From positions 10,571 through 74,570 of the forward strand of contig JAHKLW010000019.1 of NCBI GenBank assembly GCA_020854815.1: a stretch of DNA of 64,000 nt, in the 5' to 3' direction. A program made the translations under genes and the position numbers. Origin of the DNA: Methanofastidiosum sp. GTDB taxonomy: Archaea; Methanobacteriota_B; Thermococci; Methanofastidiosales; Methanofastidiosaceae. This document shows, piece by piece, positions 2,714 to 53,407 of this stretch; position 1 is the stretch's first letter; the number at the start of each line of letters is the position of its first letter. Below the pieces are notes generated by a model. It was not told where the DNA came from, searched no databases, and saw only the letters and a program-made list of their open reading frames with translations.

Positions 2714-3718
2714 ATCGAAACTATTGTTGTTGCACTTGGTGGAAACGCCATAAAACAAGCTGACGAAAAAGGAACTCATGAAGAGCAGTTCAGAAACGTC
2801 GAAATTGCTTGTGAAGCTATTTTAAAATTAATAAAAGATGGATATGAAGTCGTGATTACACATGGTAATGGGCCTCAGTCAGGGAATCTGATGGTTCAGC
2901 AAGATGCTGCCTCAAACATTGTTCCACCGATGCCAATGGACGCTGTGGGTGCCATGACACAGGGACAAATAGGGTATATGATACAACAAACTCTTCAGAA
3001 TATGATGAAAGAGAAGAAGATGAATATACCAGTTGCCACTGTTGTCACCCAAGTGGTAGTATCAAAAGATGACCCTGATTTCCAAGACCCTTCGAAACCT
3101 GTAGGTAATTTTTTCACAGAGGTAGAAGCAAAAAAAATTGCTGCTGAAACAGGGTATGTGATTGATCCAAAACCCGGTCAAGATCATATTGACAAAAAGA
3201 TGAAAGGACACGTGATTAAGAAAGTAAAACCTACCGGAGACAAACCATACAGAAGAGTTGTTCCTTCTCCAGATCCAGTTAGACCTGCAGAAGCTGTTGC
3301 AATAAAAAAACTTGTAGACAGTAACGTTGTTGTTATTGCATCAGGCGGTGGTGGAGTGCCTGTCGTAGAGGACAAAAATGGTATGTTGATGGGAATTGAT
3401 GGGGTAATAGATAAAGATAAGGCCGGAGAAAGACTTGCAGAAGCGGTTGAAGCTGATATATTTTTAGTACTAACAGATGTAGAAGTGGCTTACTTAAACT
3501 TTGGAAAACCTGATCAAAAGCCTGTGAACAAGATGACAGTTGCCGAAGCTAAGAATTACTTAAAAGAAGGTCATTTTCTTGCAGGTAGTATGGGGCCAAA
3601 AGTTTTAGCTTGTATTAGATTCATAGAAGAAGCAAAGGGGAAAAAAGCTATTATTACATCTCTTAACAAGGCAGAAGATGCACTTATGGAAAAGACTGGG
3701 ACTACCATTGTTCCATAA
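2714..3718 (+). CDS. arcC: Carbamate kinase
   Basis: Very close to archaeal carbamate kinases: 'VVALGGNA', 'VVITHGNGPQ', 'VVPSPDP', 'ASGGGGVPV', 'GHFLAGSMGPKV'. The conserved N-terminus lies upstream of the first canonical start (GTG at 2852). The in-frame ATC at 2714 sits 6 nt after AGGAGGTGA at 2701-2709. Confidence 0.85.
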   Translation: METIVVALGGNAIKQADEKGTHEEQFRNVEIACEAILKLIKDGYEVVITHGNGPQSGNLMVQQDAASNIVPPMPMDAVGAMTQGQIGYMIQQTLQNMMKEKKMNIPVATVVTQVVVSKDDPDFQDPSKPVGNFFTEVEAKKIAAETGYVIDPKPGQDHIDKKMKGHVIKKVKPTGDKPYRRVVPSPDPVRPAEAVAIKKLVDSNVVVIASGGGGVPVVEDKNGMLMGIDGVIDKDKAGERLAEAVEADIFLVLTDVEVAYLNFGKPDQKPVNKMTVAEAKNYLKEGHFLAGSMGPKVLACIRFIEEAKGKKAIITSLNKAEDALMEKTGTTIVP

Positions 3719-3729
3719 GGAGGAGTTAT

Positions 3730-4080
3730 ATGGGAATGATAGTTAAATATGAGAAAGATACAACAATATTTACTCCAAATCTACATTTTGACTGTGATTC
3801 TCGTTGGTATTTTAAGAAGGGTGAGCCAACTGGAACTATGTCTGTCCTGAGGTCTGATTTTAAAAAAGGCGGCTGGGCAGACTGGCATGATCATGCAAGT
3901 GCAGACCAAGCATACTATGTCATAAAAGGAAAAGTAAGAGTTTGGATGGATAGTGAAGACAACTATGCGGACCTTGGTCCTGGTGATATGGTAATTTTCC
4001 CAATGGGGAGAAAGCATAAACTAAAGAATTTAACAGATGGAGAATTATCACTTGTAGCAATGAATGCGCCAGCTTTATAA
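3730..4080 (+). CDS. Cupin-domain protein
   Basis: 116 aa with 'WHDH...YYVIKG' and a 'GDMVIFPMG' cupin beta-barrel signature. Its stop is 8 nt downstream of the carbamate kinase stop, and it has its own GGAGG. Confidence 0.55.
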   Translation: MGMIVKYEKDTTIFTPNLHFDCDSRWYFKKGEPTGTMSVLRSDFKKGGWADWHDHASADQAYYVIKGKVRVWMDSEDNYADLGPGDMVIFPMGRKHKLKNLTDGELSLVAMNAPAL

Positions 4081-4160
4081 TTTTTAATTTTTATTATTGG
4101 ATTTTTTTCTCTTCTACAAATTACAACAACCTATATAAGGAATAAATTAAATCAAACTTT

Positions 4161-5729
4161 ATGAGATATGTGGTAGTTACCGGAGGAGTTATTTCTGGTC
4201 TGGGCAAGGGGGTGACTACTGCCTCTATAGCAAAAATAATTCAATCAATGGGACACAAAGTAACTGTTGTTAAAATAGATCCTTATGTTAACGTAGATGC
4301 AGGAACTATGTCTCCTTTTGAGCATGGAGAAGTTTTTGTTTTAGATGATGGAGGAGAGGTAGACCTAGACCTAGGAAATTATGAAAGATTTCTTAATATA
4401 CACCTGACTAAAGCACACAATATCACTACAGGAAAAGCTTATCTTAAAGTCATTGAAAAGGAAAGAAAGGGAGACTATCTTGGTAAAACTGTTCAGATTA
4501 TCCCTCATATCACTGACGAGATAAAAACTGAAATAAGAAATGTTGCAAGAGGTCATGATGTAACTATTATTGAAGTTGGGGGAACTGTGGGGGATATTGA
4601 GAGTATGCCCTTTCTTGAGGCTTTAAGGCAGCTTTCTATTGAAGAAGATGTTGTTTTTATTCATGTTACACTAGTGCCTACCCTAAGTGTTGTTGGAGAA
4701 CCAAAGACAAAACCAACTCAACATTCAGTAAAAGCACTAAGGGAAGTCGGAATTAGCCCGCATATAATTGTCTGTAGAAGTGTTGAAAAGTTAAATGAAA
4801 AATCAAAAGAAAAAATTGCACTTTTTACAAATGTGAAAGTTGATCATGTTATTAGCGCTCCTGATGTTGAAGATATTCATTATATACCTCTTATTTTTAA
4901 TGAAGAAAAGATAGGGCAGAAGATTTTGGATCAATTCAAAATGGATGGGAAACCAAATCTTTCGTTGTGGAAATCAATTCTTTGTAGAGACTATAAAAAA
5001 GACGTAAATCTTGCAATAGTAGGGAAATATGCGGATCTCCATGACTCCTATCTCAGTATATCCCAGGCACTTAAGCATGCTTCATTTAAAACGTGTTACA
5101 AGACCAGAATATCATGGATAGAGGCTGAAGATTTTGAAAATAAAGAAATATCAAATGAACTTGACAGGTTTGATGGTATATTGGTACCTGGAGGATTTGG
5201 ATCAAGGGGTGTAGAGGGAAAAATAAACGTAATAAAAAACGCTAGAGAAAACAACATTCCTTTTTTAGGAATATGTCTTGGTTTCCAGCTTGCTGTTATA
5301 GAATACGCTAGAAATGTCTGTGGTCTTAAAAGTGCCAATACTACCGAAGTTTGTGATACGCAACAGCCAGTTATTGATTTACTGCCAGAACAAAAAAAGA
5401 TTTCAGCCAAAGGTGGAACTATGAGACTTGGGGCTTCAGAAATTTTGCTTGATAAAGGTTCGATGATATATTCATTGTATAACACAGATAAAATATATGA
5501 GAGGCATAGACATAGGTATGAAGTTAACAAAGAGTATGTTGATATCATACTAAAGAATAAAGGCTTAATATTTTCAGGTAAATCGCCAAATGGTTTGATG
5601 GAAGTTCTAGAAATTAAAGACCATCCTTTCTACTTGGGAACTCAATTTCATCCTGAGTTTAAATCAAGAGTGGAGGCAGTTGCACCAACGTTCTATGGTC
5701 TTGTAAAAGCAATGGGTGAAAAACAATGA
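4161..5729 (+). CDS. pyrG: CTP synthase
   Basis: '[13 protein letters not shown]', '[10 protein letters not shown]', and a C-terminal class-I glutamine amidotransferase domain 'GICLGFQ...HRHRYEVN'; 522 aa. Confidence 0.95.
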
Positions 5730-6342: not shown

Positions 6343-6417
6343 GGGACCGTGGGGTAGCTTGGCCCATCCTTTTGGCTTCGGGAGCCAGAAACCTGAGTTC
6401 AAATCTCGGCGGTCCCA
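6343..6417 (+). tRNA. tRNA-Pro (anticodon CGG)
   Basis: I hand-folded it. Acceptor stem GGGACCG/CGGTCCC, U8, D-loop with A14/G18G19/A21, anticodon stem TTGGC/GCCAG with loop TTCGGGA (U33, CGG, G37), T-arm CTGAG-TTCAAAT-CTCGG, discriminator A. CCA is not encoded, and there is no intron. An AT-rich TATA-like stretch lies about 25 nt upstream. Confidence 0.7.
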
Positions 6418-6497
6418 TTAAATATATAAATATAAATCTCTTTAATCTATAAGGAATCCTATTTTTTTAGATTAGAGATATCTTGAGGTGTATTTTA

Positions 6498-7640
6498 ATG
6501 GCCGATAAATTGAGAGATGAAATAATGGAAAAAATAAAAAGTGCTACAGGTAATAAACCAACTTTTTGTGTAATAGGTGCCGGAAATGGCGGTCTTGCAA
6601 TGGCAGGATATCTTGCATATTATGGTTTTTCAGTTAACATATGGACCCGAGACAAGGTGAAGATGGAGGCGTTGGCAGCTGCAGGTGGCATTGAAGTTGA
6701 GGGAAAAATAGAAGGGTTTGGAGAGCTAAATAAAACAGATGTAGATTTTCAAAAGTCAATTGAAGATGTAGATGTAATAATGGTCGTCATACCTGCAAAC
6801 GGTCACAGGGAGATTGGTGAAAAACTTGTAAAATATGTAAGGCCTGGGCAAACTATTGTTTTAAATCCAGGCAGAACAGGTGGAGCGTTAGAGCTTTACA
6901 ACATGTTTAGGAAAGAAGGAAAAATAAGAGAAGACCTTATAATCGCAGAAGCTCAGACTTTCTTATTTGTCGCTAGAAAACTCGGAGTCCATAAAGTTAG
7001 GATATTTGATATTAAAAGATCAGTTCCAGTTTCTGCAGTTAGGTCCTATAAGAATCCTGATCTTATTAAAATATTGAGAATGGCATTTCCACAGTTTACT
7101 CCTACATCAGACGTTCTTCACACAAGTTTGGGAAATGTTGCAGTTATGTTCCACCCTGGAGTAATGCTACTTAATACTGGCTGGGTAGAAAATCATGGTA
7201 ATTTTGAATATTATTTAGAAGGGATTTCACCAGGAGTTGCTAAATTATTGGAACATATAGATATGGAAAGAATAAAAATTGCAGAGGCAGTTGGCATAAG
7301 AGTTCCTTCTTTGAAAGATTGGCTCTATTTCTCTTACGGTTCAACTGGTTCTGATCTCTACGAATCAGTACAAACTACCCCTGCGTATAAAGGTGTAATG
7401 GCCCCTCCAACTATCCACCATAGATACATCTTAGAAGACGTTCCAATGAGTCTTGTTCCAATGTCATCACTTGGTAAAAAATTTGGTGTTGAAACAAAAT
7501 GTATTGATTCCCTTATTAATATAGCATGTTGCCAGCAAGAAAGGGATTTTTGGTCTGAAGGCAGAACTGTAGAGCATATGGGGATTAAGAACTTCGACTT
7601 AAAAACAATAAAGAGGCTAATCGCAGGTGAGATAGTATGA
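6498..7640 (+). CDS. NAD(P)-dependent dehydrogenase of the opine (octopine/nopaline) dehydrogenase family
   Basis: N-terminal Rossmann motif 'FCVIGAGNGGLAMAGYLA', and the overall length and pattern resemble the Octopine_DH / ketopantoate-reductase-like fold. The ATG at 6498 follows GAGGTG at 6485-6490. Confidence 0.55.
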   Translation: MADKLRDEIMEKIKSATGNKPTFCVIGAGNGGLAMAGYLAYYGFSVNIWTRDKVKMEALAAAGGIEVEGKIEGFGELNKTDVDFQKSIEDVDVIMVVIPANGHREIGEKLVKYVRPGQTIVLNPGRTGGALELYNMFRKEGKIREDLIIAEAQTFLFVARKLGVHKVRIFDIKRSVPVSAVRSYKNPDLIKILRMAFPQFTPTSDVLHTSLGNVAVMFHPGVMLLNTGWVENHGNFEYYLEGISPGVAKLLEHIDMERIKIAEAVGIRVPSLKDWLYFSYGSTGSDLYESVQTTPAYKGVMAPPTIHHRYILEDVPMSLVPMSSLGKKFGVETKCIDSLINIACCQQERDFWSEGRTVEHMGIKNFDLKTIKRLIAGEIV

Positions 7641-9253
7641 GGGCAGTTCTTGCAACAATAGGGAATTGTATTCACGTTCAAGGAATAAAAAACTTTGAAA
7701 ATTTGTTGATTAGAAATAATATTGATACAGAATTTATTGGAGTATGTGTTGATACAGACAAACTGATAAAAATCATTTTAGAAAAAAATCCCGATATTAT
7801 AGGTCTAAGTTACAGGCTTGAACCCGAAACTGCTAAAATATTATTCAAAAAGTTGAAGAATTCTATTGAAGATAATAAAATTAAATCTAAGTTTTTCTTT
7901 GGAGGAACTCCTGCTGTGTGTGAAATTGCTGAAGAATCTGGACTATTTTCAGGGGTTTTTAGAGGAATAGAAACTGAAGAACAGATACTTGATAAAGTCC
8001 TTGGGAGAGAGGGCGAGTTTAATTCAGTAGAGTATTCTCAAGATCTCTATGAAAGAATTCAAAAATCTTATCCCTTTCCTTTGATAAGACATCATTTTGG
8101 GTTACCTTCTCTTGAAAAAACAATTGAAGGTGTTAAAGAAATTGCAAATAGTAAAACTCTTGATATCATATCCATAGGGCCAGATCAAATAGCACAAGAA
8201 TGTTTTTTTAATCAAGGAAATATTTGTAAAGAGTTCGAAGGTGGTGGTGGGGTACCCCTTCGAAAAAAGGAAGACTTAGGTTCTATATATGAGTCATCAA
8301 GAGTGGGTAACTATCCTCTTTTGAGATGCTATGCTGGCACAAATGATTTGATAAAATGGGGCGATATGTTAAAAGAAACAATTAATAACGCTTGGGGAGC
8401 AATACCCCTGTTCTGGTATTCAGAACTGGATGGGAGGTCAAAAAGGGATTTAGTTAGTGCAATTACTGAAAACCAAAAAACTATAAAATGGCATGCAGAG
8501 AACAATGTTCCAGTTGAGATTAATGATTCACACCAATGGGCCCTTAGAAAAACTACTGACCCCATTGAAGTTGCCTCTGCTTATATCGCAACATATAATG
8601 CTAGAGAACTAGGAGTTAAGTACTACATCCAACAGTTTATGATGAATGTGCCCCCAGAAATTTCTCCTGAGATGGATATTGCAAAAATGTTAGCAAAACT
8701 AGAGATTATATCCGAATTATCAAATGAAGATTTTACAATTCTAAAAATGATAAGAACAGGTCTTGCCTCTCTTTCTGTCGATGAAAACATAGCAAAAGGA
8801 GAACTTGCTTCGTCAATTACAATTGGTATGTATCTAAAACCACATATTGTTCATGTAGTGGGATATTCAGAAGCATATAACGTAGCAACGCCATACGTCA
8901 TCATTGAAAGCTCAAAAATTGCAAGAGGCGTAATAAAAAATTGTCTTAAAGGATTACCTAGCATAGAAGATAACAAGAGGATACTAAAAAGAAAAGAAGA
9001 GATAATCGAGGACACTCGATTGATTATTGAAACTTTGAAATTACTTGGCGAAAGTTCAGATCCTTTAAAAGATCCCTATTCTCTCTATAAAGCTGTTAAA
9101 GTTGGCCTTATGGATGCAGAAAATTTGAAGGGATTTGATCCCGCAAAGGGGACAATTAAAACAGCCGTGATAGATGGAATGGTTCGATGTATTGATGAAA
9201 ATAATGGAGAAGTACTATCTGAGAAGGAGAGAATTAAGAGATTACGTATATAA
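7637..9253 (+). CDS. Uncharacterised protein with N-terminal cobalamin (B12)-binding-like domain
   Basis: Residues 3-110 follow the B12-binding Rossmann pattern: 'AVLATIGNCIHVQG' (the DxHxxG position reads CxHxxG), 'DIIGLSYRL', 'FFFGGTP'. The C-terminal domain of about 400 aa is unassigned. The start overlaps the upstream gene (ATGA). Confidence 0.45.
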   Translation: MRAVLATIGNCIHVQGIKNFENLLIRNNIDTEFIGVCVDTDKLIKIILEKNPDIIGLSYRLEPETAKILFKKLKNSIEDNKIKSKFFFGGTPAVCEIAEESGLFSGVFRGIETEEQILDKVLGREGEFNSVEYSQDLYERIQKSYPFPLIRHHFGLPSLEKTIEGVKEIANSKTLDIISIGPDQIAQECFFNQGNICKEFEGGGGVPLRKKEDLGSIYESSRVGNYPLLRCYAGTNDLIKWGDMLKETINNAWGAIPLFWYSELDGRSKRDLVSAITENQKTIKWHAENNVPVEINDSHQWALRKTTDPIEVASAYIATYNARELGVKYYIQQFMMNVPPEISPEMDIAKMLAKLEIISELSNEDFTILKMIRTGLASLSVDENIAKGELASSITIGMYLKPHIVHVVGYSEAYNVATPYVIIESSKIARGVIKNCLKGLPSIEDNKRILKRKEEIIEDTRLIIETLKLLGESSDPLKDPYSLYKAVKVGLMDAENLKGFDPAKGTIKTAVIDGMVRCIDENNGEVLSEKERIKRLRI

Positions 9254-9312: not shown

Positions 9313-9654
9313 TTATTTTAAAAGTGCAGGATCTCTTTTATCGATATATTCTTTTATTGCTTCTTCGACAGTTGAACTTCTTTCCCCAGTATTTAGTGCT
9401 ACTTTTATGGATCTTGGAATGCCCAACTTATCTTTTATTAACGTGTCTAGAGCATTTACAAGTTCTTCGTCAAGTGAAAAACTTTTAATTATCTTTTTCT
9501 TTTTATATAGAGACTTTTCTTCTTCTTTATGTGTAAAGCGTTGGGTCATTATTTCCTTTTTTTCCTTCTCGTGATCAATTTCCTCTTTAGTTAGGATAAC
9601 TCTTCTTTGTATTTCTTTCTCCAAATCATTCTTTAACCCGTCAGTTAAGGCCAT
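9313..9654 (-). CDS. Ribbon-helix-helix DNA-binding protein (ParG-like partner)
   Basis: C-terminal 'SFSLDEELVNALDTLIK' is a typical RHH beta-strand and helix. It lies immediately downstream of parA, with a TGATG start/stop overlap. The start is ambiguous between 9681, 9657 and 9654. Confidence 0.55.
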   Translation of the reverse strand: MALTDGLKNDLEKEIQRRVILTKEEIDHEKEKKEIMTQRFTHKEEEKSLYKKKKIIKSFSLDEELVNALDTLIKDKLGIPRSIKVALNTGERSSTVEEAIKEYIDKRDPALLK

Positions 9655-10397
9655 CATATCCCCTCCAATACTCTTTTGCACAATTGAATATAATCATAGG
9701 CTCCTCTTGAGTTCAAAGAATGTTCAAATATAGTCTTTCCAAGAGCGAAACTTTCAGATAATTTAGTATCAATTCGGATATATGGGCTTATTATGCCCTT
9801 AAAATGGTCCATCCCATCAAAGAATTCAAGATATTCTTTAGTTCTTTTTACCCTTTCATCTACAAATGTTGGAACAATAAGGTCTATTTTCAGATCTTTT
9901 TGGAAGTCTTCTCTTAAATCATAAATAAGTTTGTCAACTTTGAAAAGACCTTTTACTGAAAGATATTCCATTGAGACTGGCACAAGTAGCTTTTTACAAA
10001 AATTTAGTGCATTTTCGTTAAGTATTCCGAGTCCTGTTTGACAGTCTATGAGTGCAAAGTCATAGTTAATTCCTTCTAGGCGCTTCTTTAAAGCATTCTC
10101 TCTATTTCTCCAACCTACCATTTCTAGGGCAACTTGAGATATTGTTTCGTCTGATGCCAATAAATCCAAGTTCTTTCTAGCACCCACAATACATTCCTCA
10201 AAAGGTGCTTCGTCTTTTAGTAGATGATAAATGCTTTTAGTAAATTTAACTCCCAAACATTCTGCATCGTTACCTTGATCATCTATATCTATAATGAGTA
10301 CCTTTTTTCCAGTGAGCGCAAGCGCATGCCCTAGGTTTATAGTCGTGGTAGTTTTTCCAGTTCCACCTTTTTGATTGTATATGGCAATAGTTTCCAA
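9654..10397 (-). CDS. parA: ParA/ParF-type partition ATPase
   Basis: Deviant Walker A 'KGGTGKTTTTINLG' and 'IIDIDDQGN'. The likely start is the TTG at 10397, 4 nt after AGGTGA, giving '(M)ETIAIYNQKGG'. The track's ATG at 10433 adds 12 non-conserved residues. Confidence 0.8.
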   Translation of the reverse strand: METIAIYNQKGGTGKTTTTINLGHALALTGKKVLIIDIDDQGNDAECLGVKFTKSIYHLLKDEAPFEECIVGARKNLDLLASDETISQVALEMVGWRNRENALKKRLEGINYDFALIDCQTGLGILNENALNFCKKLLVPVSMEYLSVKGLFKVDKLIYDLREDFQKDLKIDLIVPTFVDERVKRTKEYLEFFDGMDHFKGIISPYIRIDTKLSESFALGKTIFEHSLNSRGAYDYIQLCKRVLEGI

Positions 10398-10435
10398 GAT
10401 ATCACCTATATTAATAAATATTATATAACACATAT

Positions 10436-10470
10436 TAGTTATTAATTGATATGTATTATATAATAACTAA
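10436..10470. repeat. Two TTAGTTATTA(A) motif copies in inverted orientation upstream of parA
   Basis: TTAGTTATTAA at 10436-10446 and its reverse complement at 10461-10470. Confidence 0.35.
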
Positions 10471-10637
10471 TAACATTATTTATAAGTGTTTTGGCCCTAA
10501 AAATGCATGTTTTTAACTGTTTAGAGTGGGCTAGTTAACGAAGAAACAACATTTAGACCAAGTATATAAATGAAGTGTAAAATATCTTCTATATGTAATA
10601 ATTAATAAATAATAAATATTAGCTAATAGCTATTAAT

Positions 10638-10931
10638 CTATTCAATTAGATTCCCATCTGGGTCTATTAGAATACCTTTTTTCTCAAGATTCTTTCTTAA
10701 TCTCCAAAAAGAAGTAGTTGAAATGCGTTTTTTTGCTTCTTTGAGAAATTTTTCAGCGTTTTTAGGGCTAATAAAGTGTCTTTTAACGAATTCTGTTTCT
10801 ACAAGCATTATCCTATTTTTTCTTCCGCCGCTACCTTTAGATTCTATTAATTTTATTTCACGTTCAATAGCTCTTATCAGTTCTTCTCTGGAAATACCAT
10901 ATTTTTTTGATAACTGGGTTTCTATATCCAA
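10638..10931 (-). CDS. Small basic putative DNA-binding protein
   Basis: 97 aa and Lys/Arg-rich, with a helical 'GISREELIRAIEREI' segment. No confident family assignment. Confidence 0.3.
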   Translation of the reverse strand: MDIETQLSKKYGISREELIRAIEREIKLIESKGSGGRKNRIMLVETEFVKRHFISPKNAEKFLKEAKKRISTTSFWRLRKNLEKKGILIDPDGNLIE

Positions 10932-11117
10932 TAATAAGCCTCCTGCATTTCAAAATTCTGTATTTTGAAATAGAAGAAGTTAATCTATTAATAAGTGTTA
11001 GCTTTTAGGGTTCTTATGCAAATTCGAGGCTTTTGCCGTTTTTGCAATAAAATTTCTTCTGGTTATGCATTTCGAGGTCTGGAATGTATTTTCTAAAAAT
11101 TTGATTAAAATAGGAGA

Positions 11118-11438
11118 GTGATAAATATGGAAAATGTAGAAAAAACAGATAAAAATATAAATAAAAAAGAAAATTCAAAAAGAAACGAAGATAAAGAAAA
11201 TGGAGATAATATGGTAAGAAAAAAAGCAATATCTCGACCGTTTAGAAGTTCTTTGGACATAGCCCCAGTGTTAATAGCTTTTGTAGCAGGTGCTATGTTT
11301 TTGACGGGATTTCTTTTTTCGATAGTTTACATATCAAAAGGAATATCGTCCATCATTGAATTTTTATCAAGTTTTGGTATGGTTATATTAGCCATTGCAC
11401 TTTTGGGGATAGCAATACTTTCGTTCATACGAAGATAG
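11118..11438 (+). CDS. Small membrane protein (inside IS element)
   Basis: Charged N-terminus followed by 2 TM helices. Confidence 0.35.
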   Translation: MINMENVEKTDKNINKKENSKRNEDKENGDNMVRKKAISRPFRSSLDIAPVLIAFVAGAMFLTGFLFSIVYISKGISSIIEFLSSFGMVILAIALLGIAILSFIRR

Positions 11439-11446
11439 GGATATTA

Positions 11447-11737
11447 ATGGATATTAATGACTTATTAAAAATACTTTTAGAAGAGTCAAAGATTAAAGTA
11501 TTTTTAGGAGTATTAATATTCATATTTTCACTTACAATTTATTCAAATTTTTACAAAAATGATTTAATGAGATTAACAGAAATAAATAGGTCTAATACTA
11601 TCGAAATGATTTTTCAAATGTTTATTATTGGGGCGATTCCTACTTTTTTGATAATTTTGATACTTACTAGTGGGTTATATTTACTTTATTATCTTGTAAC
11701 AAAACATCCAGAGGATAGATGGAGACCTACTCAATAG
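11447..11737 (+). CDS. Small membrane protein (inside IS element)
   Basis: 2-3 TM helices; no family recognised. Confidence 0.35.
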   Translation: MDINDLLKILLEESKIKVFLGVLIFIFSLTIYSNFYKNDLMRLTEINRSNTIEMIFQMFIIGAIPTFLIILILTSGLYLLYYLVTKHPEDRWRPTQ

Positions 11738-11921
11738 AAAATAAAAAATAAAAGTTACTGCTTTCTTACAACAATAACTTTCTCACCGTTCACAAACTCA
11801 ACATCCCAAGACAATGTGTCGCCGTTTTTTAGTTCCATCAACTGGCTTATTGCCGTTGGGATTATTGTCTTTAGGGAGTTGTACCCACTTTTTACATAAG
11901 ATACCTTGCTTGTTACCTTAC

Positions 11922-13088
11922 TCATCTTTTCACCTTAACACTCTGTTTGATAAGACCTTCCCACTTGTTGCCTTCCAAGCCCAGTTCAATGCCTGCCATC
12001 TGTGCGGGTGTCTTGCCATTCAAAGCTTGGTGTGGTCTTATGAAGTTGTAATACGCCTTGAAGCCGTCAACAAAGTCCTTTGAAGGCTCGACCTTCTTCA
12101 ATCCTCTCTGCACTTTGTTCCTCTGCCTCATCGAACCGTGAAGCCTTTCTATCTTGTTGTTGTTCCGTTCCTTGTTTGTGATTGCTATTTCCCTGATGTG
12201 CGTTGTGTTCCTCCCGTCGCCTTTTCGGTGTGTCTGGAACTCTTTTCTTACCGCTTCTTGGTAGGCATTAAGGCCGTCAGAAACTAAAATGGTTGGCGTA
12301 ATTCCAGTCACTTGCTTTGCCTCTTTCATCGGCAGTCTTGCGGTATCGACATCCCTTGTCTTACCTTCCGAAATCATGGACGAAATAAGAAAGCGTGTAT
12401 CCGTGTCCATCAAGTTCCAGAGCCAGTTCCATTCACCGTTACACTTCAAGGCCATCTCGTCTATCGCCCACATGCCGGACACGTCGGGAGTAAGTGTCCT
12501 TGTATAGTCTGAAATCAAGGATAGGTATTTTCTTATCCATCGTGATACTGTGGACTGATTGACGGTCACGTTGTAGAACTGTGCCAAGTGCTGTGCTATG
12601 TCGTTCTGTGACACGCCTTTGAAGTACAAATCAAGAGAGAGGACTATTACCCTCTGGTCGCTTGTGTTGTACTTGAACCCGTCATCAATAGAGAATCGCT
12701 TGTTACAGTCCTTGCACTGGTACATCTGCTTCATGTTGTTCTTATTCTTTCTAAATCCTTTCTTTGATAGATTGGTAGAGTTGCAGTTCGGGCATTTTGT
12801 TTTTGTGTCCTTTTTTGGTGTGAATATTCTTGCCTTTGCTTCATCTTCAATCCTGTTTTTCAACTTCATCCAGAATTTCACGGCGTTGATATGCTTGCAC
12901 TCTGCATGCCTATAGAAGTGGTCGGGACAATTGCATGTCCAGACTTTGTAGCCGTGCCTTACCAAATAATACCCTTTTCCACTTTGCGAGTGGATTTTAA
13001 ACTTGTCGTGACTGACCTCGATTGGTTCGTCACCCTTGGCTATGATTGCATAGCCCCTAATCATTCTACTGTTTGTGGTTAATACCAT
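11922..13088 (-). CDS. DDE transposase, IS6-family-like with N-terminal SWIM/zinc-ribbon extension
   Basis: Catalytic triad context 'WAIDEM', 'ILVSDGLNAY', and 'NNNKIERLHGSMRQR', an IS26-like E-x6-R signature. N-terminal 'CNCPDHFYRHAECKH' and 'CPNC...CKDC' zinc fingers. This block is about 47% GC against about 32% around it. Confidence 0.7.
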   Translation of the reverse strand: MVLTTNSRMIRGYAIIAKGDEPIEVSHDKFKIHSQSGKGYYLVRHGYKVWTCNCPDHFYRHAECKHINAVKFWMKLKNRIEDEAKARIFTPKKDTKTKCPNCNSTNLSKKGFRKNKNNMKQMYQCKDCNKRFSIDDGFKYNTSDQRVIVLSLDLYFKGVSQNDIAQHLAQFYNVTVNQSTVSRWIRKYLSLISDYTRTLTPDVSGMWAIDEMALKCNGEWNWLWNLMDTDTRFLISSMISEGKTRDVDTARLPMKEAKQVTGITPTILVSDGLNAYQEAVRKEFQTHRKGDGRNTTHIREIAITNKERNNNKIERLHGSMRQRNKVQRGLKKVEPSKDFVDGFKAYYNFIRPHQALNGKTPAQMAGIELGLEGNKWEGLIKQSVKVKR

Positions 13089-27673: not shown

Positions 27674-27738
27674 TTAATCACAAAAGATAATATAAGTTCA
27701 ATATTAAAAGGTTATCAATTGAATTGATATTAAAAAAA

Positions 27739-27951
27739 TTAATTAAGATTTTTTTGCGATTTTAACTTTTTTATTGAAGGTAGAAAATATGCTGAGCCCA
27801 TTAGTATAAATCCCAAAAATCCAAATGGGTGAGGTATAATAAATGCTACAAGTATGCCTATACCTGCCAATATCATTCCGTCTCTAGTACATAGAGGACA
27901 TCCTACTGTTGAACAAGATGTATCCTTATTTATAGAAGATTTTTCATCCAT
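27739..27951 (-). CDS. Small membrane protein with CPLC motif
   Basis: About 70 aa with a 'GCPLC' motif followed by 2 TM helices. Confidence 0.25.
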   Translation of the reverse strand: MDEKSSINKDTSCSTVGCPLCTRDGMILAGIGILVAFIIPHPFGFLGFILMGSAYFLPSIKKLKSQKNLN

Positions 27952-28128
27952 ACAAAGCACAAAGCATTAATATTTATAATAATTTCCGTGAATTATTTAT
28001 CACATAATAGTTTTTGTATTTTATATTCCAATAATTAATTATTCTATTAAATTACAGAGTTATAAATTGAAAGCGAAAGATTTATATACTTAATGTTAGG
28101 TTAACATATAGTGTAGGAAATACACGAG

Positions 28129-28599
28129 GTGAATCAAATGACTTGGTTTGATGTGATGGAAGATATGAGAAAAATGCAGGAAGAAATTGAGAGAGCGTTT
28201 CCTGAGTTTTGGAGAAGAACTCCTCTGCTAATTCCTGGAGAGTCTAAAGAAGGAGAAGTAGTAAAATATAGAAGACCATTGACAGATTTGAAAGAAACTG
28301 AAAATGAATTAATAATGGTTCTTGAAATGCCCGGTATAACAAAAGATGACATTGACATAAAAGTAACAGAAGACTCAATTGAGATAAAAGCAGAAAAGAA
28401 ATATGAAACTAAGGAAGAAGATGAGAAAAAAGGATATTTTTTCCAGGAAAGAAGATATCAAGGATTTTACCGATCAATTCCATTGCCATCTGGAATAAAG
28501 GCTGAAGAAACCGAAGCTAAATTTGATAATGGCATACTAGAGATAACGATGAAGAAAGCAGAAGAAAAAGAAAAGGCGCTAAAAGTAAATGTCAAATAA
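28129..28599 (+). CDS. Small heat-shock protein (Hsp20/alpha-crystallin family)
   Basis: Alpha-crystallin domain 'ELIMVLEMPG...KAEKKYE...GFYRSIPLP...NGILEI'. Confidence 0.85.
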   Translation: MNQMTWFDVMEDMRKMQEEIERAFPEFWRRTPLLIPGESKEGEVVKYRRPLTDLKETENELIMVLEMPGITKDDIDIKVTEDSIEIKAEKKYETKEEDEKKGYFFQERRYQGFYRSIPLPSGIKAEETEAKFDNGILEITMKKAEEKEKALKVNVK

Positions 28600-28627
28600 T
28601 TTTACTTTATTTTTTTAATTATTTAGT

Positions 28628-30070
28628 CTAAACAAGTCTATGTTGAATTGGAGGTACATAACTAGCTACTTTCTTGATTTTAAAATCATTTTCTAAAAGA
28701 GATTTAATCTGTAATGGCGGAACTCCCAAGGATATTTCTCTTGTTCTCCCATATCTTCCCTTACTAACAACTTTTGCGTTTAGAATACCAAGCATATCCA
28801 GTTCTGATATCAAATCAGATACTCTTCTTTGAGTAAGATTATCAAGTTTCAAAATATTGCTTAAGTCTTTGTATATGTTAAATACATCTCCTGTAATAAT
28901 CTCCCCAGGCATGTATTTTTCTAAAAGGTATACAGAATAAAGAATAAGTTTTGATTGTGTGGGAAGTGTTTTAATTACTTCAGAAATTCTATCCTGTTCA
29001 ATTCTATCCTTTGCAACTCTTACGTGAGGTTCTGTAACTTTTTTGGCATTTTGTCTTTCAGCTATCTCACCGGCTGTTCTTAAGAGGTCAAGAGCCCTCC
29101 TAGCGTCTCCGTGCTCTTGAGCTGCGAAAGCTGCACAAAGTGGTATTACACCAGGAGTGATTGCTGATTCATTAAACGATATTTTTGACCTATCTTCCAA
29201 TATATCCATTAGTTGCGGTGCATCATAAGGCGGAAATATAATTTCCTCTTCACCAAGAGAGCTCTTCACTCTAGGGTCCAAAAACTCGATGAATTTTAAA
29301 TCATTTGAAATGCCTATGATACTGACCCTAGCGTTTTCCAAGTCCCCATTAATTCTCGTTAAATTATAAAGAACATCATCTCCTCCTTTTTTGAGGAGCT
29401 GGTCAACTTCATCAAGAATAATAATAACAAGTTTCTTTTCACTATCAAGACTCTGAGAGAAAACGTCATAGATTTTATCTGTAGGCCAACCCGTAAGGGG
29501 AACTGACTGACCAAAGTATTCGGATAATTTTGATAGTAGCCTATATTGAGTATCTACTACTTCACAATTAATATAAATAAAAGTAATTGGCATATCCATT
29601 TTAACATTTGAATTAAGATCAGGTTTTGGAAGTCCTGTATTACAATCAATTGAAGGAGAAGTTTTCAAAAATGCCTTCCCACCAACTTTTTTTACAAGGC
29701 CGTTTCCAACATATTTTACAACGACTGTTTTACCTGTCCCAGTTTTACCATAAACAAAAATATTTGAAGGTGTTTCACCTTTAAGTGCGGATACTAATAT
29801 AGCTGCAAGTTTTTCAATTTCATTTTTTCTATGTGGTAATATTTCAGGAGTATATGAATGGCGTAAAACTTCTTTATTTTTAAAAATTGAATTAGACAAA
29901 AGAAGTTCATCAAATAAGTCATCGAGTGATGATTGTTTATTTGACATGAAATCTTCAACACTTGAAGCAATAGTATATTGTAGCTCCTCTTTGTCTGAAA
30001 CTTCAGAGAAAGTTTTTGTCTTAGAATTTTCGTCGTATTTTAAAGGTATTCCTGCGTTGTCACCATTCAA
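28628..30070 (-). CDS. orc1: Orc1/Cdc6 replication initiator
   Basis: 'LPHRKNEIEKLA', Walker A 'GKTGTGKT', Walker B 'IILDEVD', a sensor region, and a C-terminal winged helix. An N-terminal extension of about 70 aa. Confidence 0.9.
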   Translation of the reverse strand: MNGDNAGIPLKYDENSKTKTFSEVSDKEELQYTIASSVEDFMSNKQSSLDDLFDELLLSNSIFKNKEVLRHSYTPEILPHRKNEIEKLAAILVSALKGETPSNIFVYGKTGTGKTVVVKYVGNGLVKKVGGKAFLKTSPSIDCNTGLPKPDLNSNVKMDMPITFIYINCEVVDTQYRLLSKLSEYFGQSVPLTGWPTDKIYDVFSQSLDSEKKLVIIILDEVDQLLKKGGDDVLYNLTRINGDLENARVSIIGISNDLKFIEFLDPRVKSSLGEEEIIFPPYDAPQLMDILEDRSKISFNESAITPGVIPLCAAFAAQEHGDARRALDLLRTAGEIAERQNAKKVTEPHVRVAKDRIEQDRISEVIKTLPTQSKLILYSVYLLEKYMPGEIITGDVFNIYKDLSNILKLDNLTQRRVSDLISELDMLGILNAKVVSKGRYGRTREISLGVPPLQIKSLLENDFKIKKVASYVPPIQHRLV

Positions 30071-30119
30071 TTATATCACACTACTACTTTACTAATAACT
30101 ATCCTTTTTATATATTTCT

Positions 30120-30145
30120 CCCACCCCCTTATTTCCTTTGGAGAT
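30120..30145 (-). repeat. Origin recognition box (ORB-like) 1
   Basis: The reverse complement ATCTCCAAAGGAAATAAGGGGGTGGG carries a TCCA..GGA dyad plus a G-string, like archaeal ORB elements. Confidence 0.55.
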
Positions 30146-30149
30146 TTAC

Positions 30150-30395
30150 TTTAATAAAAAAAATTTGATTGAAAAGAAAAGAATCTGCACTATTTTAAAG
30201 AAACAGAGGTTAATTTGGCCTTTTCTATAATAATATCTTTTAGTTAAAATTTAAGATTATATAGATTTAATCTGTGTTTGTTTGCTCAAATGATTTTTAT
30301 GATAGGAAAAATTTATATAGTTAAAAAAACATATTTAATTAGGAATCTATAAAAATTTGTATTAGTTAGTAAAAACAAATAATAAAAATTTGTTT
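30150..30395. other. AT-rich duplex unwinding element of predicted oriC
   Basis: About 245 bp of more than 85% A+T, lying between inverted ORB-like boxes and next to orc1. Confidence 0.5.
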
Positions 30396-30420
30396 CGAGT
30401 GGAAGTAGAGGGGTATCCCT
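30396..30420 (+). repeat. ORB-like box 2 (mini-ORB)
   Basis: CGAGTGGAAGTAGAGGGGTATCCC shares a GGAAnTA..GGGGT core with box 1, in the opposite orientation. Confidence 0.5.
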
Positions 30421-30458
30421 GTAAATAATAATTTAAATGAATATTCCATTATTCTATT

Positions 30459-31355
30459 ATGCAAGACAATGATACTTACTTTGAAAGCTATCAAAAAGCT
30501 GGAGATATACTTAAGATTGTAAAAGAAGAATCAAGAAAACTAGTTTTAAATAATTACAAAGTAGTTGACTTGGTAGAATTTATAGAAAATAAAGTCATTG
30601 AAATGGGTGGGCTGCCAGCCTTTCCATGTAATATTTCTATTAATAGCGTAGCTGCACATTATACTCCGAATATCGATTCAGATTTAGTTCTTAAGAGTGG
30701 CGATTATGTAAAGATCGATATTGGATGCCATATCGATGGATGTATTGCTGATACTGCATATACTGTTAAAGTCGATGAGAATGATGATGATCTTATAAAG
30801 GCTTCACAAGAGGCCTTAAAAAACGCAATAGCAGCAGTCGAACCCGGCGTTAAGACCAATTATATTGGAAAGATAATAGAAGAAACAATTAAAGATTTTA
30901 ATTTTAATCCGATAAAAGAACTTTGTGGTCATGGTCTTAGGCCTTATGTTCTCCATTCAGGGATCACAATACCAAATTACAATAGTAACATTGGAACAAA
31001 ACTTAAGGAAGGAGACACTTTAGCAATAGAGCCTTTTGCATCCACTAAAGCTGGAAAGCTTAAGACTTCTGAAGAAGTTTACATTTTTAAATATCTTCAA
31101 GATAGACCCCTAAGAGATCCTGGCTCAAAGAAACTATTGAATGTTATTAAACAAAACTATAGAACTTTGCCTTTTGCAGAGAGATGGCTTGAAAAAAATC
31201 ATGCTGGCCTTAAAATTAACTTCTCTTTGAGAACACTTATTAGGGCAAATGTTATTTATCCTTATAATGTATTATTAGATAGTGAAGGAGGATTGGTGTC
31301 TCAGGCTGAAAATAGCTTGATTGTAACTTCAAGTGGCTGTGAAGTATACACCTAG
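30459..31355 (+). CDS. map: Methionine aminopeptidase, type 2 (archaeal)
   Basis: Pita-bread fold motifs 'AAHYTP', 'DYVKIDIGCHIDG', 'GHGL', and the typical archaeal size of 298 aa. Confidence 0.85.
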   Translation: MQDNDTYFESYQKAGDILKIVKEESRKLVLNNYKVVDLVEFIENKVIEMGGLPAFPCNISINSVAAHYTPNIDSDLVLKSGDYVKIDIGCHIDGCIADTAYTVKVDENDDDLIKASQEALKNAIAAVEPGVKTNYIGKIIEETIKDFNFNPIKELCGHGLRPYVLHSGITIPNYNSNIGTKLKEGDTLAIEPFASTKAGKLKTSEEVYIFKYLQDRPLRDPGSKKLLNVIKQNYRTLPFAERWLEKNHAGLKINFSLRTLIRANVIYPYNVLLDSEGGLVSQAENSLIVTSSGCEVYT

Positions 31356-45911: not shown

Positions 45912-46301
45912 TCACTCAAAGAGACAGTTCATGCAATTAACAGCTACAACTGAAATTACAAATGCAGCAATTGCAAATATAATCCAAATTCTTCTTCTAT
46001 AATACTTCTCAGAAATATAGATAACAAAAGCAGATGTTGAAATAAAGTAACATAATAATGGAAATATAGGCATCGTGACTAGTAAAAATAGATTATACCC
46101 CATCAGGTAAAGTGACCACTCAATACCGCTCCAGCTGATACCAATAAAAATGACGCCAAAAAGGAATAACTCTTCTGCTTTCTTGTAATTATTTTCCCTT
46201 AAAAAAAGAGAATAAATAATTAAAAAAGAGCTCAATATAGAGCTTAATATTGAATAGTGAAATCCTAGAGATTCGAGCCCCATTTTATTCCAACACTGCA
46301 C
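45912..46301 (-). CDS. Small membrane protein
   Basis: 129 aa with 4 TM helices. It is the last gene after ilvD, with a 17-nt overlap. Confidence 0.35.
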
Positions 46302-47934
46302 CCTTATCAGATGAAGACACTAGTTTTCTATATCTCAAGAGCATTCCTGGAATATTCTTCTTCGGCAGTTTTGCATTTTTTAGTCTCTGTTCTATTTCTT
46401 CATCTGTAAGTGCAACTTCAAGTTTTCTCTTTGGTATATCTATTTTGATTATATCCCCATCCTTTACAGCAGCTATTGCCCCTTTGTCAAAGGCTTCTGG
46501 GGATACATGGCCTATACATGGGCCTCTTGTCCCTCCTGAAAATCTTCCGTCTGTAATTAAGGCCACTGATTCAGACAGCCCCATGCCTGCTATCAAACTT
46601 GTTGGCTCTAACATCTCCCTCATTCCAGGTCCACCCTTTGGCCCTTCGTATCTTATGACAACAACCATTCCAGGTTTAATTTTACCTGAAAGTATGGCTT
46701 TTGTAGCTGTCTCTTCACTTTCAAAGACTTTGGCCTTACCCTCAAACTTCATTATCTTCTCACTAACAGCAGTCTGTTTCACAACAGAGCCTTTAGGAGC
46801 AAGATTTCCCTTAAGAATGGCAATTCCACCCTGTTTGTGGTAAGGATTATCAACATTTCGAATTGTTTGAGATTTTATTATCTTTACTTTCTTTAGTACG
46901 TCACCAAGTGTATTTCCCATAACTGTTTTTGTTTCAAGATTTAGTTTGTTCTTTAATCTTATGAGAATTTGTGGAATACCGCCGGCATCATCAAAGTCTC
47001 TCATAAAGAAAGGTCCACCTGGCCTTAGATTTACAAGGTGTGGCGTCTCTTTAGAAATCTTATCAAATAGTGTTAAGGGCAGGGCAATACCGAATGCATT
47101 AGCAACTGCTGGCAGATGCAGAACAGTGTTTGATGATCCACCTATTCCCATATCAACTCTAATTGCATTTTCAAAGCTCATCTTAGTAATTATGTCTTTT
47201 GGTTTCAAGTCCTTCTTAACAAGTTCTACTACAAGCTTCCCTGTTTGATAAGCTATTTCTTCTTTTCTCTTATCAGTTGCATGAACAGTAGCGCTCCCAG
47301 GAATTGAAAGACCCAACGCTTCAGTCATACAAGCCATTGAGTTTGCCGTAAATAGACCTGCACATGCTCCAGCACCTGGACAACTTCTCTTTTCTATTTC
47401 TCTAAGTTCCTTCTCATATATATCTCCTTTTTTAAAGCTACCAATGGCCTCAAAGATTGATATCAGATCAAGTTGCTTACCTTTGTATTCTCCTGGCTCC
47501 ATTGGGCCTCCAGTGACCATAACAGCTGGAATATTTATCCTACCGGCAGCCATAAGCATACCTGGCGTTATCTTGTCACAATTTGTAACTCCTACCCACC
47601 CATCAAAGAGATGAGAAGAAACCATAAGTTCAACAGAATCAGCAATTATGTCTCGTGATGGCAGAGAATATCTCATGCCTTGATGCCCCATAGCAATTCC
47701 ATCACATATGCCTGGCATACCAAATTCAAACGGGATACCACCCGCATCTCTAATACCTTTCTTTACAAGGTCTGTAAGTTTTCTAAGATTAATGTGGCCT
47801 GGCACTATTTCTGAATAAGCTGAGGCTACACCTATAAACGGTTTCTTAAAGTCCGCATCTTTTAGTCCATCAGCCCTCAACAGTCCTCTTGCCCCTGCCT
47901 TATCAATATCCTCTTTAATTATTGAACTTCTCAC
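46285..47934 (-). CDS. ilvD: Dihydroxy-acid dehydratase
   Basis: '[12 protein letters not shown]', '[11 protein letters not shown]', '[11 protein letters not shown]'. Confidence 0.95.
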
Positions 47935-49499: not shown

Positions 49500-49509
49500 T
49501 TTTTTCTCC

Positions 49510-50634
49510 TTATTCTTTCATCTTCTTGACTATTTCATCTCCAACCTCAGTTGTCTTAGAAGTTCCACCAAGATCCTGTGTTCTTACCTTTCCTTCTTCC
49601 AATACTTTGACTACAGCCTTTTCAATCAATGCCGCTGTTTTTGGCTCTCCGATAGTTTCTAGCATCATAACTCCACTCAATATTGTGGCAAGTGGATTTG
49701 AAACATTCTTTCCCTTGTATTTTGGCGCAGAGCCATGTATTGGCTCAAACATTGAAACACCATCAGGATTAATATTTCCTCCAGCTGCAAGACCTAGACC
49801 TCCTTGGATCATAGCTCCAAGATCAGTGATTATATCTCCAAACATATTTGGAGCAACAACAACCTGGTACCACTGTGGCTGTTTCACAAACCACATTGTA
49901 ATCGCATCGACAAATGCGAATTCAGTTTCATAACCAGGATATTCCTTTGATACATCTTCAAAAACGTCTCTCCATAAACTGTAAATATTTGTCAAGACGT
50001 TGGCCTTATCAACAGATGTTACTCTTTTCTTACCCTTCATCTTAGCAAGTTCAAATGCATATCTTATAACCCTCTCAGAACCTGCTCTCGAGATCATACC
50101 TATTTGATATGCTATCTCTTCAGGTCTATCGATATCAATACCCATATTAAACTTTACTTCGTAAAGATCTCTTATTACCTCAAGTTCTTCTTTGTTCTTT
50201 GTTCCTTTGAACCTTCCACCAATTCCTATGTAGAAATCTTCTGTGTTCTCTCTAATAACGTGGAAGTTGATGTCTTTGTAGGATTTATCCTTTAGTGGAC
50301 AAGGAACATTTGGATAAGATACAATTGGTCTTAAATTTACATATTGATCAAAATAAAATCTCATCTTGAGGAGGATACCCTTTTCAAGTACTCCAGGGGC
50401 GACCCTTGGGTCACCAATAGCACCAAAGTATATTGCATCCTTTTTCTTAAGTTCCTTTAGAGTTTCTTCAGTAATTAATTCTCTAGTTTTTAAGTATTGT
50501 TCAGACCCGTTTTGGTAGTATTCCCATTCAATACCTAAACCTGTTATGTCGCATGCTGCGTCTATTACCTTCTTTCCTTCTTCGATTATCTCAGGTCCTA
50601 TGCCGTCACCGGGCATTATGGCTATTTTTTTCAT
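49510..50634 (-). CDS. leuB: 3-isopropylmalate dehydrogenase
   Basis: '[13 protein letters not shown]' and '[12 protein letters not shown]'. Confidence 0.85.
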
Positions 50635-52374: not shown

Positions 52375-52408
52375 AAAAATCAACTAAAAAATAAAAATTT
52401 AAATTATT

Positions 52409-53404: not shown

Positions 53405-53407
53405 AAT

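Follow-up and report, generated by a model that had tools for sequence, protein, structure and literature searches.

The 64,000-nucleotide stretch of Methanofastidiosum sp. DNA analyzed here (GenBank assembly GCA_020854815.1, contig JAHKLW010000019.1, positions 10,571 to 74,570; hereafter the window) carries two translationally coupled genes, which encode an opine dehydrogenase (ODH) and a 538-residue protein with an N-terminal B12-binding domain. The first-pass annotation, made from the letters alone, had delineated both open reading frames and their ATGA overlap and had placed the pair directly after a tRNA gene; the coordinates were confirmed, and a tRNA-Pro gene indeed lies immediately upstream. 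The features, numbered from the first letter of the window, are:

6343–6417, plus strand: tRNA-Pro (anticodon cgg), found with ARAGORN; a neighbor outside the module
6418–6497, plus strand: AT-rich 5' region of the operon, with a Shine-Dalgarno-like AGGTG at 6486–6490 (read from the sequence)
6498–7640, plus strand: predicted NADPH-type ODH of the 'mODH' subclass, 380 residues from ATG 6498 (Pfam, alignment with PDB 1bg6)
7625–7640, plus strand: translational-coupling junction, with a ribosome-binding site AGGTGA at 7625–7630 followed by ATGA (read from the sequence)
7637–9253, plus strand: predicted fused cobalamin-dependent mutase, 538 residues, B12-binding domain first, then a GlmE-like TIM barrel
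7637–8011, plus strand: predicted cobalamin-binding Rossmann domain, approximately residues 1–125
7661–7684, plus strand: G9-N-C11-I-H13-V-Q-G16, a variant of DxHxxG (alignment with MetH and 26 homologues)
8072–8956, plus strand: predicted (β/α)8 barrel, approximately residues 146–440, homologous to the glutamate mutase E subunit
8957–9250, plus strand: C-terminal helical/β cap, approximately residues 441–538, corresponding to the C-terminal region of GlmE (hhalign, secondary structure)

The ODH reading frame begins with TTG at 6483, but ATG 6498 is the likelier start, because it lies 7 nt past the AGGTG at 6486–6490. The start codon of the mutase gene (ATG 7637) overlaps the stop codon of the ODH gene (TGA 7638–7640), and overlapping or abutting junctions between the two genes were also found at loci L001, L003, L007, L091 and L093. 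The 538-residue protein is 100% identical to a protein (P0001) from a Candidatus Methanofastidiosum metagenome-assembled genome (MAG). The immediate neighbors of the pair in the window are housekeeping genes. Adjacency to the tRNA looks incidental, because most of the loci scanned with Rfam have no tRNA beside the pair, the Methanofastidiosa relatives not having been scanned for the tRNA itself, and because only other Methanofastidiosa loci have the same CTP synthase and SIS genes upstream.

Domain architecture of the 538-residue protein

The N-terminal domain matches the Pfam B12-binding family (PF02310) over residues 2–103 with 39.2 bits against a curated cut-off of 32.1, and the same family is matched by all of the 26 homologues aligned with it. 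By this measure it is predicted to be a genuine B12-binding domain, as the first-pass annotation had supposed, and its assignment to a non-cobalamin Rossmann family was not borne out. Alignment with MetH places C11, H13 and G16 at the Asp, His and Gly of DxHxxG, S58 at the Ser of SxL, and G89-G90 at the GG motif. Among the homologues, which share 47–84% identity, residues G9, C11, H13, S58-Y-R-L61 and G89-G90-T91 never vary, and conservation of G16 is 90% or higher. The motif previously noted at the DxHxxG position therefore reads CxHxxG, Cys11 replacing the Asp in all 26 sequences from archaea and bacteria alike, and the proposed GG motif is fully kept. The proposed SxL motif holds in its Ser, whereas the Leu at the +2 position is an invariant Arg60 (S-Y-R-L). 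His13 is presumed to be the lower axial cobalt ligand. We know of no other B12 enzyme family with a Cys at the Asp position of the His-Asp-Ser ligand triad; this invariant Cys11 may be redox- or metal-sensitive, and it poses a separate question in B12 enzymology.

No invariant or near-invariant Lys was found in residues 1–135 of the 26-homologue alignment. A pyridoxal phosphate (PLP)-dependent aminomutase of the OraE/KamE type is ruled out, because the Rossmann domain lacks the conserved Lys. The OraSE/Ord and KamDE/Kdd systems differ accordingly from the present family: they hold PLP on a Lys of the Rossmann domain, are paired with dehydrogenases outside the ODH family and reside in catabolic operons.

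The remaining ~400 residues, which the first-pass annotation could not place in any family, likewise gave us no Pfam match, and neither the single sequence nor a 26-sequence profile found a counterpart for them in the PDB, where only the B12 domain was placed. The NCBIfam methylaspartate mutase models yielded only sub-threshold matches to the S subunit (18.5 bits vs 110), and 12 of the 26 homologues match the Pfam family Met_asp_mut_E (PF06368) weakly (best E 1.2e-6). At the level of fold the region could be placed: an AlphaFold2 model built from the alignment had a mean predicted local distance difference test score of 91.2, and a fold search assigned the C-terminal 400 residues to a GlmE-like TIM barrel. 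On the strength of this model, the protein is predicted to unite the S and E parts of an adenosylcobalamin-type mutase in one chain, the B12 domain coming first.

For residue-level comparison, the E. coli O157 GlmE protein was mapped to the numbering of the Clostridium cochlearium enzyme, and a 12-sequence GlmE profile was built. Using hhalign, residues 269–521 of the family profile aligned with GlmE 184–433; the match is weak (E 0.037, probability 1.4%) and its register sensible, whereas the single E. coli GlmE sequence gave no useful alignment. The invariant E412 coincides with GlmE E330, which we take to contact the adenosyl ribose, and G490/D493 coincide with GlmE G402/D405. In the first half, which hhalign left unaligned, manual motif matching paired D176..D183..Q187 with D89..D96..R100 of GlmE, and R151 and R230 are possible counterparts of R66 and R149. 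Invariant residues are found at or just past the predicted strands (R151, H152, H153, D183, Q184, R209, R230, D265, R267, R270, E294, H299, R304, Q333, R373, H406 and E412), a pattern that, in the model, would be expected of a live active site binding an anionic substrate.

Glutamate mutase (GlmS/GlmE, also MutS/MutE; EC 5.4.99.1; PDB 1cb7, 1ccw and 1i9c) shares the TIM-barrel fold of its E subunit with the present family at only 15% identity. It consists of separate S and E subunits with a DxHxxG motif, whereas the present family is fused, with an N-terminal B12 domain carrying CxHxxG. In addition, the glm operon of E. coli O157 contains MutL/GlmL and methylaspartase genes, neither of which occurs near the pair in 85 loci; the obligatory partner is the ODH instead.

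Partner dehydrogenase, gene neighbors and leader RNAs

The window ODH matches Pfam Octopine_DH (PF02317) with 152.7 bits and has an N-terminal NAD(P) Rossmann domain with GxGxxG. The closest solved structure is the Arthrobacter N-(1-D-carboxyethyl)-L-norvaline dehydrogenase (ArODH/CENDH, PDB 1bg6), which aligns over the whole length with 243 bits, in agreement with the octopine/nopaline-dehydrogenase fold proposed in the first-pass annotation. The catalytic residues His219, Arg309 and Asp314 (ATG numbering) align with H212/R324/D329 of Pecten octopine dehydrogenase, and this His/Arg/Asp set is invariant in 79 mutase-linked ODHs.

Telek et al. (2024) described six hot-spring metagenomic ODHs (mODH-45, -47, -48, -49, -55 and -582), ~40% identical to ArODH, which favor acidic L-amino acids (L-Asp ahead of L-cysteate and L-Glu) together with pyruvate and most of which use NADPH (PMC10787698). 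Unlike this subclass, ArODH prefers hydrophobic amino acids and NADH. The mODH specificity is determined by Arg at ArODH position 111 and Gly at 198, while Arg at 35 marks NADPH use; for mODH-48, conversion was 75.9% with L-Asp and 2.1% with L-Glu, pyruvate being the preferred keto acid, and the study makes no mention of B12, gene context or physiology (PMC10787698). In the window ODH, Arg126 stands at ArODH A111, Ala215 at N198, and Thr50-Arg51 at D34-I35. Across the 79 mutase-linked ODHs, position 111 is Arg in every case, position 35 is Arg in 76, and position 198 is Gly in 71 and Ala in eight, the latter being the window ODH and other Methanofastidiosa ODHs. Judged by these residues, the window enzyme belongs to the mODH subclass and is predicted to prefer acidic amino acids and pyruvate and to be of NADPH type.

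The two lines meet in mODH-48 itself, whose supplementary sequence (in a machine-read copy) matches protein P0241 at 98%. The corresponding gene (L091, 2256–3344) is overlapped by a gene for a 540-residue B12-binding/Met_asp_mut_E protein (3337–4959) and preceded by an Asn_synthase-like gene, and the Mesotoga prima orthologue has the same gene arrangement. Compared to the window ODH, mODH-48 is 44% identical and shares Arg111, a small residue at 198, Arg35 and the catalytic His/Arg/Asp.

The mutase has more than 3,500 homologues, with relatives in at least 589 species among species-representative genomes of both prokaryotic domains. Bacterial carriers include Thermoanaerobacter, Caldanaerobacter, Tepidanaerobacter, Clostridium ultunense, Oxobacter, Bacteroidota, Thermotogae, Atribacteria and Aminicenantes, and archaeal carriers include Methanoculleus, Methanobacterium, Thermoplasmata, Theionarchaea, Thorarchaeota and Promethearchaeota. 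The neighborhood comparison suggested in the first-pass annotation was run across both domains. An ODH homologue lies immediately upstream on the same strand at 81 of 89 mutase loci and immediately downstream at three; leaving out two loci without room upstream, the pair is present in 84 of 87 informative loci. The other three (L023, L045 and L055) have no ODH in the DNA stretch examined. Outside Methanofastidiosa the ODH partners are 38–48% identical to that of the window, and in the reverse look-up a mutase gene adjoined the ODH gene in four of four cases.

The pairing is not new but has been known since 2009, when Zhang, Rodionov, Gelfand and Gladyshev (BMC Genomics 10:78, PMC2667541) predicted a B12 family, "always adjacent" to pfam02317, in 11 bacteria of four phyla, with no function and no fold for the rest of the protein. 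D-Ala:D-Ala ligase (Ddl) and asparagine synthase genes were nearby in several genomes (PMC2667541). That family is the one described here, since the distant N-terminal B12-binding domain, the pfam02317 adjacency and the Ddl and asparagine synthase (AsnB) neighbors are all reproduced; what is added is the spread over at least 589 species including several archaeal phyla, the GlmE-like barrel, and regulatory and biochemical links. In the literature we found no later characterization of the mutase and, as the first-pass annotation had stated, no characterized pathway that contains the pair, though the adjacency had been published.

No thiolase, ammonia-lyase, CoA-transferase or uptake gene is conserved near the pair across 85 loci. 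Other neighbors vary, and the sole recurrent ones are an asparagine-synthetase-like (AsnB-like) gene, found at 19 of the 85 loci and usually adjacent, and short Ddl-like ATP-grasp genes. Most of the AsnB-like proteins lack the N-terminal catalytic Cys, reading M[S/A/E/I/P]GIAG rather than MCG (loci L017, L021, L024, L026, L029, L031, L034, L047, L051, L053, L070, L080 and L082); only those of L023, L037 and L067 keep MCG. The Cys-less proteins recall β-lactam synthetase and carbapenam synthetase, whose substrates are secondary-amine carboxylates. Canonical Ddl genes lying 2–3 kb off in Tepidanaerobacter-type loci are probably coincidental.

Individual loci show further arrangements. In a Theionarchaea MAG (L066), the mutase gene is followed by genes for an NAD-synthase-type PP-loop amidotransferase (9613–10398) and a Ddl-like ATP-grasp protein (10428–11345), another amide-forming pair. 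A bacterial MAG (L003) encodes an ODH with an N-terminal PTS_EIIA_2 domain (6433–8004) and, after the mutase gene, a fusion of SBF (Na+-dependent transporter family) and AMP-binding domains (9661–12273). In Pseudothermotoga (L093, 10380–13080), an ODH-mutase-ATP-grasp operon is followed by genes for RNase HII, glutamine synthetase, a response regulator and two TrkA-domain (K+ uptake) proteins. In Methanobacterium and Methanoculleus (L002 and L005), the pair sits within glycosyltransferase/UDP-sugar clusters, with a convergent gene for an ATPgrasp_Ter-type ligase directly downstream. Aspartate-pathway genes adjoin the module in Mesotoga (L092, 226–4270) and in an Atribacterota MAG (L094, 8700–12913), namely those for aspartokinase (fused to homoserine dehydrogenase in L092), aspartate-semialdehyde dehydrogenase (L094 only), homoserine kinase and threonine synthase; they may hint at an aspartate-derived substrate or be a coincidence.

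Scanning of leader regions revealed a cyclic di-AMP (c-di-AMP) riboswitch (RF00379) directly 5' of the ODH gene in all eight Firmicutes loci first scanned (93–118 bits against a gathering score of 38). A covariance model (R1) built from these eight riboswitches and run over 87 sources detected it in 27, always on the coding strand and just upstream of the operon. An Rfam scan of ten of these 27 loci confirmed all ten with 84–118 bits, among them L049 and L053, the latter with the riboswitch ahead of an AsnB-like-ODH-mutase gene series. The Caldanaerobacter leader runs from promoter through aptamer, terminator hairpin and ribosome-binding site to the ODH gene, and a Thermoanaerobacterales MAG (L083) has tandem c-di-AMP aptamers (6553–6673 and 6759–6884) before the ODH gene.

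A second RNA class, nhaA-I (RF03057), occurs in Desantisbacteria (L026) 5' of the ODH gene and 5' of the AsnB-like gene, and there a CBS-domain gene and a Na+/H+ exchanger gene directly follow the mutase gene on the same strand. In Planctomycetia (L023), an nhaA-I RNA lies 5' of the mutase gene, with MscS channel genes on the flanks. Altogether, seven loci in four phyla have MscS genes no more than a few kb from the pair, in most cases directly adjacent. The leader-RNA scan gave no T-box or amino-acid riboswitch that would indicate the substrate, and none of the bacterial regulatory elements was found at archaeal loci or in the window. An FMN riboswitch that closely follows the mutase gene in a Clostridiales MAG (L087, 9688–9801) presumably serves the gene after it. 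White et al. (2022) state that c-di-AMP riboswitches switch osmotic-stress genes off, that nhaA-I variants sense Na+, and that c-di-AMP and Na+ riboswitches also govern ablA and eam, radical aminomutases producing the osmolytes β-lysine and β-glutamate (PMC9337991). Three links appear to be new: the mODHs as partners of the mutase, the c-di-AMP and nhaA-I riboswitches, and the MscS or Na+/H+ exchanger neighbors.

Proposed pathway and alternative functions

We propose that the pair forms a self-contained two-enzyme pathway, induced in bacteria by salt or osmotic stress, in which an acidic amino acid and pyruvate are turned into an anionic opine-type solute serving as a compatible solute or K+ counter-ion, a reading to which we give an even chance of being right. 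In the first step, the 538-residue protein would bind adenosylcobalamin in the base-off/His-on mode via His13, and a 5'-deoxyadenosyl radical in the GlmE-like barrel would convert a C5 skeleton of the glutamate type to a branched one of the aspartate type, such as 3-methylaspartate. In the second step, which is partly shown in vitro for orthologues, the NADPH-dependent ODH would join this amino acid to pyruvate by reductive condensation. An N-(1-carboxyethyl) tricarboxylate would result, and its formation would pull the mutase equilibrium forward; that of glutamate mutase lies at about 10:1 toward glutamate. In some lineages only, the glutaminase-Cys-less AsnB-like enzyme or the Ddl-like ATP-grasp enzyme might then amidate or ligate the product. 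Control in bacteria would be exerted by a c-di-AMP OFF riboswitch or an nhaA-I (Li+/Na+) riboswitch, and the MscS channels encoded near the pair could let the solute out when external osmolarity falls.

The mutase-first order is favored because mODH-48 takes Asp-length rather than Glu-length substrates and because an NADPH-driven step would pull the equilibrium. The reverse order, in which the ODH would act first and the mutase on an N-substituted glutamate, may apply instead, given that the residues at the Arg100 and Glu171 positions of GlmE appear changed. The analysis shows the domain architecture and fold, the conserved pairing, the place of the ODH in the assayed Asp-preferring subclass, and the riboswitch and channel associations in bacteria; we infer the adenosylcobalamin cofactor, the glutamate-mutase-like 1,2-carbon shift, the order of the ODH condensation and the solute role. 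For Methanofastidiosum the role would be extrapolated from orthology, the enzyme pair being the only part of the system found in the window.

Several observations weigh against this proposal. The mutase step is a prediction, and the window protein itself has no match to Met_asp_mut_E at E≤0.1. In the manual motif matching, Arg100 of GlmE is replaced by the invariant Gln187 and no acidic residue stands opposite Glu171; from the 1CCW/1I9C literature, we take Arg66, Arg100 and Arg149 to be substrate-binding and Glu171 to be catalytic. Because of these two changes, which hhalign does not support, the substrate may not be free glutamate. NMR surveys of solutes in Thermotogales reportedly list no such opine. 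The mODHs are modest enzymes on L-Asp in vitro (kcat ~0.1–1.8 s-1, Km 0.5–25 mM), and 3-methylaspartate was outside their substrate panel (PMC10787698). At the regulatory level, R1 found no c-di-AMP riboswitch in the window, for which no Rfam scan was made, no osmotic-stress gene lies next to the window pair, and the c-di-AMP riboswitch regulon also includes cell-wall genes.

The most serious competitor, though an unlikely one, is a catabolic module: in anaerobic fermentation the pair would break down an acidic amino acid or opine, much as OraSE feeds 2,4-diaminopentanoate dehydrogenase in ornithine fermentation and KamDE feeds 3,5-diaminohexanoate dehydrogenase in lysine fermentation. The analogy falters on the Rossmann domain, which lacks the invariant PLP-binding Lys, and on the surroundings of the pair, where no thiolase, ammonia-lyase, CoA-transferase or uptake genes are conserved and the accessory genes encode ATP-consuming ligases. 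Furthermore, the NADPH signature of the ODH suggests biosynthesis, and control by c-di-AMP OFF and nhaA-I riboswitches, together with MscS and Na+/H+ exchanger neighbors, points to ion or osmotic stress rather than nutrients. Quite unlikely, in our view, is a fate of the product in the cell envelope, whereby an unusual amino acid or opine would be built into peptidoglycan, pseudomurein or a surface glycan and attached or amidated by the Ddl-like and AsnB-like enzymes. Cell-wall remodeling genes in the c-di-AMP regulon, the Ddl-like and AsnB-like genes beside the pair at many loci, and the sugar clusters around it in Methanobacterium and Methanoculleus all speak for such a fate; yet the pair also occurs in Methanofastidiosa, Thermoplasmata and Asgard archaea, which are not known to have peptidoglycan, most loci have no envelope genes nearby, the characterized ODH partners act on free amino acids, and the association with nhaA-I, Na+/H+ exchanger and MscS would be left unexplained.

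Still less probable is an opine-type polycarboxylate that binds or buffers metal cations, like staphylopine or pseudopaline. Such a metallophore would be in keeping with a tricarboxylic secondary amine as product, with a cation-sensing riboswitch such as nhaA-I, and with the ODH family, which includes the metallophore enzyme CntM (bioRxiv 10.1101/641969); but no nicotianamine-synthase-like (CntL), exporter or importer gene is conserved nearby, and c-di-AMP control and MscS neighbors fit osmotic homeostasis better. None of these three alternatives explains the combination of c-di-AMP and nhaA-I control, MscS and Na+/H+ exchanger neighbors, the NADPH signature and occurrence in wall-less archaea. 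Finally, the N-terminal domain might have lost cobalamin binding, leaving a cofactor-independent TIM-barrel enzyme or a regulator, as the changes of the canonical Asp to Cys and of the SxL Leu to Arg might suggest. We regard this as exceedingly improbable: His13, G16, S58 and G89-G90-T91 are invariant or nearly so across archaea and bacteria, the Pfam score exceeds its curated cut-off, the barrel retains E412 at the position of GlmE E330, and the invariance of the Cys itself indicates selection rather than decay.

Two further ideas were rejected. A pyrrolysine-like scheme (mutase, ATP-grasp and dehydrogenase) is an analogy alone, with no homology to PylB, PylC or PylD. A route to isoleucine (glutamate via methylaspartate to 2-oxobutyrate, or 2-hydroxyglutarate to 3-methylmalate) does not suit salt-linked regulation, and the window already has a complete branched-chain operon with two LeuA/CimA paralogues.

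The opine-type solute pathway that we favor follows the same logic as the ablA and eam osmolyte routes, in which a radical enzyme isomerizes an abundant amino acid into an inert one that is then capped, under c-di-AMP or Na+ riboswitch control (PMC9337991). However, those enzymes are radical S-adenosylmethionine/PLP 2,3-aminomutases unrelated in sequence, whereas the present module would use cobalamin as the radical source and an ODH as the capping enzyme. Another compatible solute, N-acetylglutaminylglutamine amide (NAGGN), was reportedly traced by Sagot and colleagues (PNAS, 2010) to Ngg, an ATP-grasp enzyme, and AsnO, an asparagine-synthetase-like enzyme. These are the accessory enzyme types found beside the module, but the NAGGN route has neither a B12 enzyme nor an ODH, and the AsnB-like proteins beside the module mostly lack the catalytic Cys. 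The pair is best classed as a variant both of the adenosylcobalamin mutases and of the radical-isomerase osmolyte pathways.

More tentatively, the module may represent the first cobalamin-dependent compatible-solute pathway together with a new adenosylcobalamin mutase reaction, whereby a fused GlmE-like mutase with a Cys-His (CxHxxG) cobalt-ligand motif and an Asp-type ODH would jointly yield a branched tricarboxylic opine not described before, for example N-(1-carboxyethyl)-3-methylaspartate, which would accumulate under salt stress in bacteria and archaea (methanogen relatives, Thermoplasmata and Asgard). About a dozen adenosylcobalamin isomerases are known, and it is rare for a new reaction to join them. 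The B12 family has been an orphan since 2009 despite its presence in at least 589 species of both prokaryotic domains, and the analysis joins three previously unconnected lines: that family, the Asp-preferring ODHs of 2024 (studied purely as biocatalysts), and the regulons of c-di-AMP and Li+/Na+ riboswitches. If the proposal is true, it would add a new class of osmolytes, link osmoadaptation in anoxic habitats to the supply of B12, offer a further physiological explanation of why anaerobic communities depend on this vitamin, and give a physiological role to enzymes under development for reductive amination.

Other features of the window

Convergent to the mutase gene lie a gene for a ParA/MinD-type ATPase (AAA_31) and a small upstream reading frame (9313–10433, minus strand), which are kept in seven Methanofastidiosa loci. 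Beyond them is a gene for an IS240-family DDE transposase (11922–13088, minus strand), whose N-terminus is Cys/His-rich by reading of the translation. An Orc1/Cdc6 gene with Cdc6_C, Cdc6_lid and AAA domains (28628–30070, minus strand) adjoins the GluRS and IleRS genes, and the intergenic DNA on its two sides (~27700–28600 and 30070–30460) may hold a chromosomal replication origin. The branched-chain operon mentioned above (46285–57167, minus strand) comprises ilvD, two LeuA/CimA-type synthase genes, leuB, leuC with a probable leuD, ilvC, and ilvB with a probable ilvN; the presence of two synthase paralogues points to isoleucine synthesis via citramalate. A gene for a P-type cation ATPase lies at 57412–60150.

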